Of a stretch of DNA of 6,186 nt, positions 1,251 through 6,186 are shown in pieces. This DNA comes from Escherichia coli (lineage in GTDB: Bacteria; Pseudomonadota; Gammaproteobacteria; Enterobacterales; Enterobacteriaceae), in the NCBI RefSeq assembly GCF_003334765.1, contig NZ_QOWT01000062.1. One strand, 5' to 3'. The notes under the pieces are model-generated. The model was not told the origin of the DNA. It saw nothing but the letters and a program-made list of their open reading frames with translations, and ran no database searches. The number at the start of each line of letters is the position of its first letter. Position 1 is the stretch's first letter. The translations under genes were made by a program, and so were the position numbers.

Positions 1251-1278
1251 ATCTCTTTATCCTGGTTGTCACAGAATA

Positions 1279-1298
1279 AGCCCGGTAAAATACGGGCT
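1279..1298 (+). promoter_or_regulatory. hairpin (6-bp stem AGCCCG / CGGGCT, 8-nt loop) ending one base before the tnpC start codon
   Basis: Seen: AGCCCG(1279-1284) GTAAAATA CGGGCT(1293-1298) then T, then ATG at 1300. It occupies the position where a ribosome-binding site would be; no canonical Shine-Dalgarno is visible. A regulatory role is inference. Confidence 0.3.
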
Positions 1299-1299
1299 T

Positions 1300-2685
1300 A
1301 TGAACGACATCTCTTCTGACGACATCTTCCTGCTGAAACAGCGCCTGGCCGAACAGGAAGCGCTGATCCACGCCCTGCAGGAAAAGCTGAGCAACCGGGA
1401 GCGCGAAATAGACCATCTGCAGGCGCAGCTGGATAAACTCCGCCGGATGAACTTCGGCAGTCGTTCCGAAAAAGCCTCCCGCCGTATCGCACAAATGGAA
1501 GCCGATCTGAACCGGCTTCAGAAAGAGAGCGATACGCTGACTGGTAGGGTGTATGACCCGGCAGTACAGCGTCCGTTGCGTCAGACCCGCACCCGTAAGC
1601 CGTTCCCTGAATCACTACCCCGTGACGAAAAGCGACTGTTGCCTGCGGCGCCGTGCTGCCCGAACTGCGGCGGTTCACTGAGCTATCTGGGCGAGGATAC
1701 CGCCGAACAGCTGGAGTTGATGCGTAGCGCCTTCCGGGTTATCCGGACGGTACGGGAAAAACATGCCTGTACTCAGTGCGATGCCATCGTGCAGGCACCT
1801 GCACCTTCGCGGCCCATCGAGCGGGGTATCGCCGGACCGGGGCTGCTGGCCCGCGTGCTGACCTCGAAGTATGCAGAGCACACCCCGCTGTATTGCCAGT
1901 CAGAAATATACGGCCGGCAAGGTGTGGAGCTGAGCCGTTCACTGCTGTCGGGCTGGGTGGATGCATGCTGCCGGCTGCTGTCTCCGCTGGAAGAGGCGCT
2001 TCATGGCTATGTCATGACTGACGGCAAACTCCATGCCGATGATACCCCGGTCCAGGTACTGCTGCCGGGTAATAAGAAGACGAAGACCGGGCGGTTGTGG
2101 GCGTATGTTCGTGATGACCGCAATGCCGGGTCAGCGTTGGCACCTGCAGTGTGGTTCGCTTACAGCCCGGACAGAAAAGGCATCCATCCGCAGACTCATC
2201 TTGCTTGCTTCAGCGGTGTGCTGCAAGCGGATGCGTACGCCGGGTTCAACGAGCTGTATCGCAATGGTGGGATAACGGAAGCTGCCTGCTGGGCTCATGC
2301 CCGCCGAAAGATCCACGATGTGCACGTCCGCATCCCGTCAGCACTGACGGAAGAAGCCCTGGAGCAGATCGGTCAGTTGTACGCCATAGAGGCGGATATA
2401 AGGGGAATGCCGGCAGAGCAGCGGCTTGCTGAACGTCAGCGAAAAACGAAACCGCTGTTGAAATCCCTGGAAAGCTGGTTGCGTGAAAAGATGAAGACCC
2501 TGTTCTTCGGCTCTGGCCATGGTGGTGAGCGGGGAGCGCTACTGTACAGCCTGATCGGGACGTGCAAACTGAATGACGTGGATCCAGAAAGCTACCTTCG
2601 CCATGTGCCTGGCGTCATAGCAGACTGGCCGGTCAACCGGGTCAGCGAACTGCTTCCGTGGCGCATAGCACTGCCAGCTGAATAA
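1300..2685 (+). CDS. tnpC: IS66-family transposase TnpC (Orf3)
   Basis: ORF track 1300..2685 (461 aa), the longest ORF in the element. N-terminal heptad-like, leucine-rich region (LLKQRLAEQEALIHALQEKL...), a CxxC...CxxC zinc-finger motif (CCPNCGG ... CTQCD), and an acidic-residue-rich core consistent with the IS66 transposase. Ends 12 bp before the IRR region. Confidence 0.88.
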   Translation: MNDISSDDIFLLKQRLAEQEALIHALQEKLSNREREIDHLQAQLDKLRRMNFGSRSEKASRRIAQMEADLNRLQKESDTLTGRVYDPAVQRPLRQTRTRKPFPESLPRDEKRLLPAAPCCPNCGGSLSYLGEDTAEQLELMRSAFRVIRTVREKHACTQCDAIVQAPAPSRPIERGIAGPGLLARVLTSKYAEHTPLYCQSEIYGRQGVELSRSLLSGWVDACCRLLSPLEEALHGYVMTDGKLHADDTPVQVLLPGNKKTKTGRLWAYVRDDRNAGSALAPAVWFAYSPDRKGIHPQTHLACFSGVLQADAYAGFNELYRNGGITEAACWAHARRKIHDVHVRIPSALTEEALEQIGQLYAIEADIRGMPAEQRLAERQRKTKPLLKSLESWLREKMKTLFFGSGHGGERGALLYSLIGTCKLNDVDPESYLRHVPGVIADWPVNRVSELLPWRIALPAE

Positions 2686-2923: not shown

Positions 2924-4297
2924 TTATTTCAACGCTTCCGGCAGCGTCACAATCCACAGTTCACTGTCAGACTCCGGTTTCTCCAGTGGCTTCACTCTGA
3001 GGGTCGTTTCAACCTGCTTGTCGTCAAGCGTCAGCTTTCCTTCCGCGTTCACCCGATAATCCTTGAATGTCTTGCCCTCGACCGGATGTTGCATCGCCAC
3101 CTTCACGCCAAAGTCGTTATCGTTCGCCACCGCCAGCGTTTTGCTGTCGATCAGCGCCAACCCTTCAGCCTTCTCCTGCTGCCAGCCCAAGGAGCGCAGA
3201 TCAACAACCTGCGTTTTCTGCGCAAGGGTAATGCCGCGCTGTGACAGGGTTTTCTCATCATCAAACTCCGGATACTCACCCGGCTTGTCGAAGCCTGACA
3301 GGTCGCTCGCCTTATTGAGATCGACCTCGTAAATCAGGTTACGCATTCTGTTGTTTTTATCTCTTCCCTGTTCGATCAGCAGGATGTGCTGGTTATCGAG
3401 CGCCACGATGTCTCCGATTTTAGCGTCGCTGTTTTTGCTGTAGGCCGCGCTGTCGATAGGATAACCGTACATCGCGGTTTTTCCGCTTGCCGGATCGAAG
3501 CTCACCAGACGCGTAAACAGCGCCTTTTTCTTGCTCTTAGTGTCGATATCCAGCGTACTTTGCACGGCGACAATAATACGCCCGTCCGGCATACGGGTGA
3601 GGCCTTCAAAGCCGCGGTTCGCCTGACGCCATTTGAGGATATTTGGCAAACCGCCCGCAATCGCTTTTTCCCCTTCCGCCGCCTGCGGACCGTGGATTGC
3701 CAGGATTTTCCCTTTACTGTCGATGTTAATCAGGAACGGGCCATACTCATCGCACAGCCAGTAACCTCCTTTACCATCCGGAGTGATCCCTTCCGTATCC
3801 AGCCCGCGATTATCCCCCTTCAGTCTATGTAACGTGTCGCTGAAGGCCACTTCATTGGTGGAGCCAATCACGTCGCTTGCCAGCGGCAGACCGTTGATCG
3901 CGCCTTTATCGTCATGCAGAGGACGGGGATCGATGGCCTCCGCTTTGCCGTTTTGTACACGAATCGTCATCAGCAGCGGCGCGAAATCTGGCGTAACGAA
4001 AATTTTAGTTTCGTTTTTCCCCTCTTTCGGTGAATCCGCGTTCGGACCGCGATCGGTAATGGTTGCGAATGTCAGGGCATCGCCCTGTTTACCGGTGAAC
4101 AGCAGGCCAGAACCTATCCCAACCGGAAGGCCGTTCGGGAATGCACTGGCAAATGCGCCGGCATAGTTCACGTGCGTGCCTTCTGGAAAACTGACGACAT
4201 AGCGCTCAGCCGTAGGTTGTGCCGCCAGGGCAGAGAAAGAGAGCGTACAACCGATTAGCACGGGAATAATTTTTCTTTTCATATTGTTAGCATCCAT
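2924..4297 (-). CDS. secreted or lipoprotein-type beta-propeller protein, phytase-like / SdiA-regulated-domain family (function unknown)
   Basis: ORF track 2924..4297 - (457 aa). N-terminus MDANNMKRKIIPVLIGCTLSFSALAAQP has a signal peptide with a lipobox-like LIGC; an alternative start is the internal Met giving 2924..4282. Motifs ANRGFEGLT and AEGLA resemble the GFEGL and AEG(V)A motifs I recall in E. coli YjiK (SdiA-regulated / phytase-like beta-propeller clan). Family assignment is from memory, not a search. Confidence 0.7.
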   Translation of the reverse strand: MDANNMKRKIIPVLIGCTLSFSALAAQPTAERYVVSFPEGTHVNYAGAFASAFPNGLPVGIGSGLLFTGKQGDALTFATITDRGPNADSPKEGKNETKIFVTPDFAPLLMTIRVQNGKAEAIDPRPLHDDKGAINGLPLASDVIGSTNEVAFSDTLHRLKGDNRGLDTEGITPDGKGGYWLCDEYGPFLINIDSKGKILAIHGPQAAEGEKAIAGGLPNILKWRQANRGFEGLTRMPDGRIIVAVQSTLDIDTKSKKKALFTRLVSFDPASGKTAMYGYPIDSAAYSKNSDAKIGDIVALDNQHILLIEQGRDKNNRMRNLIYEVDLNKASDLSGFDKPGEYPEFDDEKTLSQRGITLAQKTQVVDLRSLGWQQEKAEGLALIDSKTLAVANDNDFGVKVAMQHPVEGKTFKDYRVNAEGKLTLDDKQVETTLRVKPLEKPESDSELWIVTLPEALK

Positions 4298-4545: not shown

Positions 4546-4695
4546 TGCACGTGTCAGTATGATGAGCTGACCACACTCACGTGGGTGGACTGGTATAACA
4601 ATCGACGATTGCTGGAAAGGCAGGGCCATATCCCACCGGCAGAAGCAGAAAAAGCTTATTATGCTTCCATCGGAAACGATGATCTGGCAGCCTGA
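4546..4695 (+). pseudogene. C-terminal remnant of an rve/DDE-type (IS3-like) transposase, 5' portion missing
   Basis: Open frame with no start codon translates to CTCQYDELTTLTWVDWYNNRRLLERQGHIPPAEAEKAYYASIGNDDLAA*, stop at 4693-4695. The W-x-x-YNNRR...PAE pattern matches the conserved C-terminal end of integrase-core transposases (IS3 family OrfB). No upstream transposase body is present. Confidence 0.5.
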
Positions 4696-5014
4696 GTTCA
4701 CAGATAAAACACTCTCCAGGAAACCCGGGGCGGTTCAATTGCTGGATAAGATCATAACGATACACCGGGTTAAACAGGTGGTCACTGCTTCACTGAAGCT
4801 GCGTGATTATGATGGTCAGGTAGCAGAAGCTATGCCCATGATACAAAAATGACGAAAGCCGAAATGTCTGAAAGCGTGTGTATTACCTGAAAATATGACC
4901 GGCTCCGGGGTACGTAACCGATTCAACAAAGCCAATCGATATTACAAAACGAGAGGAACTATATATTTCGTTTTCAGATAAGACTCCTTGAGAGATTATC
5001 TTTTATGTAAAATC

Positions 5015-6017: not shown

Positions 6018-6040
6018 GGTAATGACTCCAACTTACTGAT
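6018..6040 (-). repeat. IS1 terminal inverted repeat (insB-proximal end)
   Basis: GGTAATGACTCCAACTTACTGAT differs by one base from the IS1 right inverted repeat as I recall it (GGTAATGACTCCAACTTATTGAT). Confidence 0.88.
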
Positions 6041-6186
6041 AGTGTTTTATGTTCAGATAATGCCCGATGACCTTGTCATGCAACTCCACCGATTTTGAGA
6101 ACGACAGTAACTTCCGTCCCAGCCTTGCCAGATGTTGTCTCAGATTCAGATTATGTCGCTCAATGCGCTGAGTGTAACGCTTGCTG
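6033..6186 (-). CDS. insB: IS1 transposase InsB, C-terminal part (5' end outside window)
   Basis: Codon-by-codon translation of the minus strand from the TAA at 6033-6035 reproduces the InsB C-terminal sequence ...[18 protein letters not shown]. Not in the ORF track because there is no Met in the window. Confidence 0.9.

Follow-up and report, generated by a model that had tools for sequence, protein, structure and literature searches.

The stretch of Escherichia coli DNA analysed here (6,186 nucleotides [nt]; RefSeq assembly GCF_003334765.1, contig NZ_QOWT01000062.1; hereafter "the window") carries on its plus strand, at approximately 434-2722, a copy of ISEc8, an insertion sequence (IS) of the IS66 family, and this report concerns the junction between its second and third genes, where a strong RNA hairpin overlaps the start of the transposase gene tnpC. 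According to the list of open reading frames (ORFs) and to NCBIfam, three genes follow each other on the plus strand in the order tnpA, tnpB, tnpC. The first, tnpA, runs from ATG 526 (or GTG 505) to 906 and matches the IS66 TnpA model above its cut-off (94 bits); tnpB, coding for the IS66 accessory protein TnpB (IS66_TnpB, 119 bits versus a cut-off of 50), spans 903-1250 with its TAA stop at 1248-1250; and tnpC, which encodes an IS66-family DDE transposase of 461 amino acids, occupies 1300-2685 and matches transpos_IS66 in two stretches (353 bits, above the cut-off). The start of tnpB overlaps the stop of tnpA in an ATGA at 903-906. The organisation tnpA, tnpB, tnpC with an ATGA overlap between the first two genes is reportedly that of IS679 and IS66 (in work attributed to Han et al. 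2001 and Gourbeyre et al. 2010), and the window resembles these elements in having the same three genes, the same overlap and a tnpC that follows after a spacer.

At the end of this spacer, both the repeat finder and RNA folding returned a perfect stem of 9 bp with 100% complementary arms, in which a 5' arm, ATAAGCCCG (1276-1284), and a 3' arm, CGGGCTTAT (1293-1301), enclose the 8-nt loop GTAAAATA (1285-1292), all on the plus strand. The original prediction for this locus, made from the sequence alone, had described a 6-bp stem with an 8-nt loop that stopped one nucleotide short of the tnpC ATG. The inverted repeat and its 6-bp core (1279-1284/1293-1298) are real; the stem, however, is lengthened to 9 bp by three A-U pairs and takes in A1300 and T1301 of the start codon. 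In isolation, the 35-nt hairpin segment folds with -15.4 kcal/mol, compared to -3.9 ± 1.8 kcal/mol for dinucleotide shuffles (z = -6.3), and 0 of 200 shuffles was equally stable. The folding check that had been proposed for 1250-1320 likewise gave an energy that is not negligible (-20.1 kcal/mol, z = -3.6), with the hairpin retained in both the minimum free energy and the centroid structure of this 71-nt context. The absence of a canonical Shine-Dalgarno (SD) sequence before tnpC was also borne out, the best anti-SD duplex within 20 nt upstream amounting to -3.0 kcal/mol. A search of the window with the covariance models of Rfam 15 yielded no match at the hairpin; the sole hit in the window, isrJ on the minus strand inside tnpB (903-968), is at chance level (22.6 bits versus a gathering score of 37, E = 0.8).

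Several candidate roles for the hairpin or its loop were discarded. An intrinsic (Rho-independent) terminator is ruled out, since the stem is followed by TTATGAAC with no T-run and the terminator scan was without a hit at the site. The TAA in the loop does not qualify as a stop for a frameshifted tnpB product with subsequent reinitiation, given that the -1 frame already stops at 1277-1279 and that in ISEc8 the TAA lies outside both the tnpB and the tnpC frames. Finally, the GTAA of the loop was considered as a transposase-bound internal copy of the tip of the terminal inverted repeats (IRs), GTAAGCG, and rejected for lack of co-variation between the IRs and the junction motif: IRs with GTAAGCG are found in enteric and betaproteobacterial elements alike, and the junction motif varies (TAAAAT, TAAACT, TAACAT, TATAAT and others).

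The loop of the hairpin contains a -10 hexamer, TAAAAT (1286-1291, plus strand), which matches TATAAT at five of six positions, ends 8 nt before the tnpC ATG and scores 7.8 bits against our position weight matrix, an approximate E. coli matrix built from consensus frequencies. The hexamer is invariant in all 22 of the distinct, closely related ISEc8-type junctions that also served as our covariation sample, and most relatives have an extended -10 element, TGGTAAAAT, where the window copy has CGG. The 3' arm of the stem thereby comprises the promoter discriminator together with the A and T of the tnpC start codon. A -35-like hexamer, CTGGTT, lies 18 bp upstream of the -10 box (1262-1267, plus strand); it is weak (-0.9 bits against the same matrix) and probably of little importance. 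A standard promoter scan of 400-2800 found no promoter and is silent at tnpC because it demands a good -35 element; the tnpC promoter is of the -10/extended -10 type.

Published data on an identical ISEc8 junction place the transcription start site (TSS) of this promoter on the A of the tnpC ATG, at 1300 on the plus strand. In a Cappable-seq study of E. coli O157:H7 EDL933, performed in eight conditions in triplicate with reads mapped to NZ_CP008957, a plus-strand TSS at 346224 is listed in all eight conditions for the "IS66 family transposase ISEc8" (locus 1705), and a second ISEc8 copy (locus 6320) has a plus-strand TSS at 1275582, again in all eight conditions (PMC10469882). Both positions coincide with the first base of a tnpC coding sequence (CDS), namely that of EDL933_RS01705 (346224-347762; RefSeq and PMC10469882 gene table) and that of the second copy (1275582-1277120; PMC10469882 gene table), and the EDL933 junction is base-for-base identical to that of the window, with the A of the ATG at 346224. 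For the mapped TSS, bTSSfinder calls a σ70 promoter with box10 "taaaat" and box35 "ctggtt" (supplementary file 10 of PMC10469882), which project onto window positions 1286-1291 and 1262-1267, respectively. The tnpC TSS has a relative read score of approximately 9-15 and shows no differential regulation (PMC10469882). A Pribnow box located 6-8 nt from the start codon has been described as a signature of leaderless genes (PMC6028130), and tnpC displays it, with TAAAAT 8 nt before the ATG and no SD sequence. Judging from the TSS data for the identical junction, the principal tnpC mRNA is therefore leaderless and excludes the 5' arm of the hairpin (1276-1284), and the leaderless mRNA in turn explains the missing SD sequence. 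We are highly confident of the joint anatomy that these data suggest, in which the -10 box sits in the loop, transcription starts on the AUG to give a leaderless mRNA, and only read-through RNA contains the hairpin.

This anatomy bears directly on the role that had first been proposed for the hairpin, namely that, as part of the 5' leader of the tnpC mRNA, it masks the initiation region and so keeps translation low, or else that tnpC is translated by coupling to, or read-through from, tnpB. In line with a leader hairpin, the stem does take in the first two bases of the AUG, and an SD sequence is lacking. However, because primary transcription starts at the first base of the ATG, the 5' arm is missing from the main mRNA, which largely refutes the leader hairpin and contradicts the read-through alternative; as for coupling, the tnpB stop lies 49 nt upstream of tnpC, about 26-28 nt before the stem, too far for ordinary termination-reinitiation coupling. 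We consider this explanation extremely improbable. Leaderless mRNAs are known from other bacterial systems, for instance λ cI transcribed from PRM and tetR of Tn1721. The ISEc8 tnpC gene is like these in having its TSS on the A of the AUG, no SD sequence and a -10 box 6-8 nt upstream; unlike them, it is a transposase gene, in an IS treated as a three-gene operon, and its translation from a 5'-terminal AUG is a prediction.

A leaderless start is also found in a more distant member of the family. Differential RNA sequencing of plasmid pAA of E. coli O104:H4 identified a TSS at 61169 for an IS66-family tnpC, with an untranslated region (UTR) of length 0 and a step height of 890.5 (PMC5066232). 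The gene at this position is of the ISEc43 type, has its CDS start at 61169 (RefSeq) and is preceded by the junction TTGTAA-N17-TATAAA-N7-ATG; its TnpB and TnpC are 66% and 64% identical to the window proteins. The ISCro1-type tnpC of the same plasmid has its 5' end at 41370, likewise with a UTR of 0, and was classed as a processing site (PMC5066232). In both 5'-end maps (PMC10469882, PMC5066232), the tnpC starts are given in supplementary tables and pass without comment in the text. Our full-text literature search, which lay outside Han 2001 and Gourbeyre 2010, so that a prior description is possible, returned no description of a promoter in the tnpB-tnpC spacer, of a leaderless tnpC mRNA or of the hairpin.

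Across the family, it is not the hairpin that recurs at the junction but a T-A-N-N-N-T hexamer, set a short and constant distance ahead of the ATG. Starting from 344 loci with TnpB relatives (reference genomes and IMG/VR contigs), we collected 292 tnpB-tnpC junctions, corresponding to 122 unique sequences, which fall into 57 clusters with below 70% identity to one another across the 45 nt that precede tnpC; 54 of these clusters were usable. In nearly all junctions, tnpC begins with the first ATG that its open frame offers. Of the 54 clusters, 21 have a -10-like hexamer of at least 4.5 bits whose end lies 5-9 nt from the start, as opposed to 3.9% of 33,137 control ATGs from the same loci, and a further eight clusters have hexamers of 3-4.5 bits; an SD sequence is present in four of the 54. 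The gap between box and start is exactly 6 nt in 16 of the 21 clusters with a -10-like box, which places the A of the ATG at the modal start position, and the base at -1 is a pyrimidine in 19 of them.

The junction types differ in how the box is framed. The ISEc8 type reads (T/C)GGTAAAAT-N8-ATG and the ISEc22 type TGGTAATAT-N7-ATG. In Oxalobacteraceae and others the junction is TTGTAA-N17-TAAACT-N6-ATG, where TTGTAA represents the last Leu codon and the stop of tnpB; one member with a longer spacer (L036) has a second TTGTAA exactly 17 bp upstream of TAAACT. Aeromonas has TTGTAA-N16-TAAGAT-N8-ATG, a Sodalis-related group has TAACAT, TACCAT or TATCCT followed by N6 and the ATG, and distant members have TATAAT-N6, TATATT-N7 or TGaTATAAT-N6. 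In three low-GC members (L333, L338 and L340), a perfect TATAAT lies further upstream in the spacer, 26-37 nt from tnpC, with a canonical SD sequence after it; these motifs suggest the same principle of an internal promoter, here giving an mRNA with a leader. A separate subgroup, whose TnpB is similar to P0243 and P0236 (L163, L164, L166, L204, L212, L230, L232, L243 and L313), shares a TGATTCnAT (or TGTTTTGAT) motif that is conserved 6-7 nt ahead of tnpC. This motif, with its TGn-like prefix, stands where other members have their -10 box, but its hexamer has no A in second place; an atypical promoter and a signal of another kind are both conceivable.

Within the ISEc8 type, the hairpin shows signs of having been maintained. 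Over the 22 junctions, 97% of the stem cells are standard pairs, and among 500 shuffles only one attains a pairing or covariation score as high. Compensatory changes occur at two pairs (G-C to C-G twice, C-G to U-A once). The pair 1283/1294 is U·G in 14 of the 22 variants, this U being the T in the TGn of an extended -10 element; with C at 1283, the window has a perfect stem in a weaker promoter context. The hairpin is more stable on the sense than on the antisense strand in 21 of 22 variants (-11.7 versus -7.6 kcal/mol), and these predicted stabilities therefore argue for a constraint on the sense-strand RNA rather than for a DNA palindrome that acts as an operator. Such an operator, on whose arms a dimeric protein (the helix-turn-helix protein TnpA or a host factor) would flank the -10 box and repress the tnpC promoter, would fit an inverted repeat centred on the -10 hexamer, and TnpA has a helix-turn-helix-like N terminus with weak similarity to the repressor-type TnpA of IS2/IS3. 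However, T·G at one pair in those 14 variants breaks the symmetry of the DNA and keeps the RNA pair, the antisense strand folds on average 4 kcal/mol worse, and the arm sequences shift by compensation instead of staying conserved; by our own reasoning, moreover, the half-site centres lie 17 bp apart, out of helical phase. We regard the operator as very unlikely.

The explanation that we favour, with moderate confidence as a whole, is that the hairpin is built around a leaderless tnpC promoter and silences read-through RNA. According to this model, the inverted repeat brackets the tnpC core promoter, whose TAAAAT box in the loop would be recognised by σ70 RNA polymerase, with transcription starting at A1300. 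The hairpin would form only in RNAs begun upstream, that is, in tnpA/tnpB transcripts or in transcripts that read in from flanking DNA, and in these the SD-less AUG and the ribosome landing zone would be locked in a stem of -15 kcal/mol. Virtually all TnpC would then come from the leaderless transcript of the element itself, which is weak and constitutive. Unfolding the region from -20 to +15 is predicted to cost 17.6 kcal/mol in read-through RNA (1240-1389), compared to 1.4 kcal/mol for the first 15 nt of the leaderless RNA. The proposal that the hairpin sequesters the initiation region thus holds for RNA that contains both arms, in which the start is buried, and fails for the main tnpC mRNA, which has no 5' arm. 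That the selected role of the hairpin is to insulate transposase translation from read-through transcription is a further step, to which we would give an even chance.

The EDL933 map shows that RNAs initiated upstream of the junction exist. One ISEc8 copy has a plus-strand TSS 141 nt outside its left end, which indicates read-in transcription; this is the only TSS upstream in that copy, and the Cappable-seq data contain no tnpA TSS inside the left end of the IS. Internal plus-strand TSSs were mapped at 345610 and 1274968, corresponding to window position ~686 inside tnpA, 217 nt upstream of tnpB, and these were present only in the four stationary-phase conditions. A different use of the hairpin in such RNAs would be as a 3'-end element of the tnpA-tnpB transcript, either as a stem that stabilises it against 3' exonucleases or as a pause site or weak terminator; both would restrict the passage of upstream polymerases into the tnpC promoter and thereby its occlusion. 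A stable GC-rich stem shortly (about 26-28 nt) after the tnpB stop, selection on the sense strand and the upstream plus-strand TSSs, which show that such transcripts are made, are all in keeping with this explanation. Against it, there is no U-tract after the stem (CUUAUGAAC), the terminator scan is empty there and sister elements manage without a hairpin, so that we judge it quite unlikely.

The proposed silencing of read-through RNA has a precedent in other transposable elements. IS10/Tn10 and IS50/Tn5 are said to limit read-through activation by "fold-back" inhibition, as reportedly described by Davis, Simons and Kleckner (1985), Krebs and Reznikoff (1986) and Schulz and Reznikoff (1991). 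There, as in ISEc8, one arm lies upstream of the native start and the other over the transposase initiation region, so that the stem exists only in transcripts from outside and the native transcript is free of it. ISEc8 has this geometry, with the 5' arm upstream of the TSS at 1300, the 3' arm over the start codon and a stem of the stability given above. The systems also differ: the native mRNA of IS10 and IS50 has a leader with an SD sequence, and SD and start are sequestered together, whereas ISEc8 has a leaderless native mRNA, a -10 box as the loop and, in read-through RNA, an internal AUG without SD sequence, the effect of the hairpin on its translation being a prediction.

Several observations weigh against the favoured explanation. 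An internal AUG without an SD sequence would be poorly translated anyway, and the added benefit of the stem is possibly small. As regards the TSS, reads from identical IS copies map to several places, so that the start belongs to the ISEc8 sequence and not to one copy, and the 8-nt gap between -10 box and TSS in ISEc8 is longer than the family mode of 6. The covariation signal stems from 22 closely related sequences with three doubly changed cells. The abundant sister types, the ISEc22 type and L010/L244, keep the -10 box and leave the AUG unburied, with AUG opening costs of 0.2-1.2 kcal/mol as against 2.6-4.2 kcal/mol in most ISEc8-type variants. Finally, of 29 clusters, only four have a hairpin around the -10 box that outperforms flank shuffles. 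These are ISEc8 itself (z = -5.9), an ISEc43-type element in L002, Aeromonas and L309, with L310 and L336 being borderline; the Stouffer Z across clusters is -2.9 and is driven by a few lineages.

Taken together, these comparisons suggest that the strong hairpin is an optional accessory of the ISEc8 subclade and a few scattered lineages, not a hallmark of the family. The earlier view of the hairpin as a regulatory element of the IS66 family, for which its conservation among relatives was to be the check, is accordingly too broad; it is the promoter box that is widespread. A family-wide structure that occludes the AUG likewise finds no support, as most junction clusters are no more occluded than their shuffles. 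The ISCro1 junction and the ISEc43 junction of pAA have weak folds. In the ISCro1-type junction on pAA (L345, 1163-1188; relatives in L170 and L193), a GTGAGG ahead of the ATG is paired with the CCTCAC of codons 3-5, so that the AUG lies in a 9-nt loop and the 5' arm, once more, upstream of the mapped 5' end; this fold is not significant compared to shuffles (z = -1.3).

The narrow distribution also raises the possibility that the hairpin is without a selected function, a lineage-specific chance palindrome around the promoter that persists because ISEc8 copies are young. Such a palindrome would be expected in one shallow subclade only, with related ISEc22-type and L010-type elements lacking it, and without enrichment over the family as a whole, which is what the cluster statistics show. 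On the other hand, the compensatory changes and the high proportion of paired cells, the asymmetry of hairpin stability between strands and the recurrence of -10-enclosing hairpins in unrelated junction types (the ISEc43 type in L002, Aeromonas, L309 and, as borderline cases, L310 and L336) speak against mere chance, and we consider this explanation unlikely.

The copy of ISEc8 in the window is itself a defective family member, as its sequence indicates. It is 99-100% identical at the DNA level to annotated ISEc8 in thousands of E. coli records and is bounded by a left IR, GTAAGCGTACAGCCTGAACCGT... (434-456), and a right IR, ...CGCTGTACGCTTAC (2700-2722), read from the sequence on the plus strand; the GTAAGCG tip appears as GTAAGCGTAC at 434, with its complement ending at 2722, and the same IRs are found in L004, a full-length relative, and in L047. 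Its tnpC has suffered an in-frame internal deletion of ~51 amino acids (~153 bp) with a junction near 2500-2510, the full-length ISEc8 CDS being 1539 nt long, and full-length ISEc8 records align to the window in two pieces. The copy is probably non-autonomous, because the missing segment would carry the last catalytic acidic residue, as we presume from full-length IS66 transposases. The deleted form is found as a single match with 100% coverage in many E. coli chromosomes, and therefore suggests an old fixed copy. IS66 elements usually generate 8-bp target duplications. No such duplication flanks this copy, as the octamers AAATAGTG (426-433) and TTTTGTTC (2723-2730) differ, and the copy may have been rearranged after insertion.

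Further observations concern the opposite strand of tnpC and the DNA beyond the IS. In EDL933, both ISEc8 copies have an antisense TSS within tnpC (347115 and 1276473) that is listed for all eight conditions and corresponds to window position ~2191 on the minus strand, with a CAAGAT hexamer 6 nt upstream on that strand; it could be the start of an antisense RNA against tnpC. Directly downstream of the IS, on the minus strand, a 457-amino-acid ORF (2924-4297) begins with an N-terminal signal-like sequence; NCBIfam gave no match for it at E ≤ 0.001. As judged by eye, the translations also include a short C-terminal fragment resembling IS3-family orfB (4560-4700, plus strand) and one resembling IS1 InsB (6030-6186, minus strand), the latter running off the end of the window, so that the region downstream looks like a graveyard of IS remnants.

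Elements of the IS66 family count among the most frequent ISs of E. coli, Klebsiella and bacteria associated with plants, and in our searches they were matched in 4067 of 5426 complete E. coli genomes. To our knowledge, the control of their transposase is essentially undescribed. The TSS data that bear on it were already public and uninterpreted, and what is gained here is an interpretation, not a new kind of mechanism. For ISEc8, it means that the missing SD sequence of tnpC is no annotation error, which affects both the annotation and the engineering of the element, and that transposase output is predicted to be decoupled from TnpA, TnpB and flanking promoters. The junction also offers a compact natural case of a promoter embedded in a hairpin loop, in which one sequence would serve as DNA signal and as RNA structure. 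Beyond ISEc8, it is tempting to speculate, at odds that we put slightly below even, that for a large part of the IS66 family the spacer contains a promoter dedicated to tnpC, and that the gene is transcribed on its own instead of as the third gene of a tnpABC operon. Its mRNA would be leaderless in most proteobacterial members, with a -10 box 6 nt before the ATG and often the final TTG-TAA of tnpB as the -35 element, and would have a short SD-containing leader in low-GC members, and insulating hairpins that hide the AUG of read-through RNA would have arisen repeatedly. If this is true, the supply of transposase would be determined by the translation of leaderless mRNA, a weak process that stress favours.

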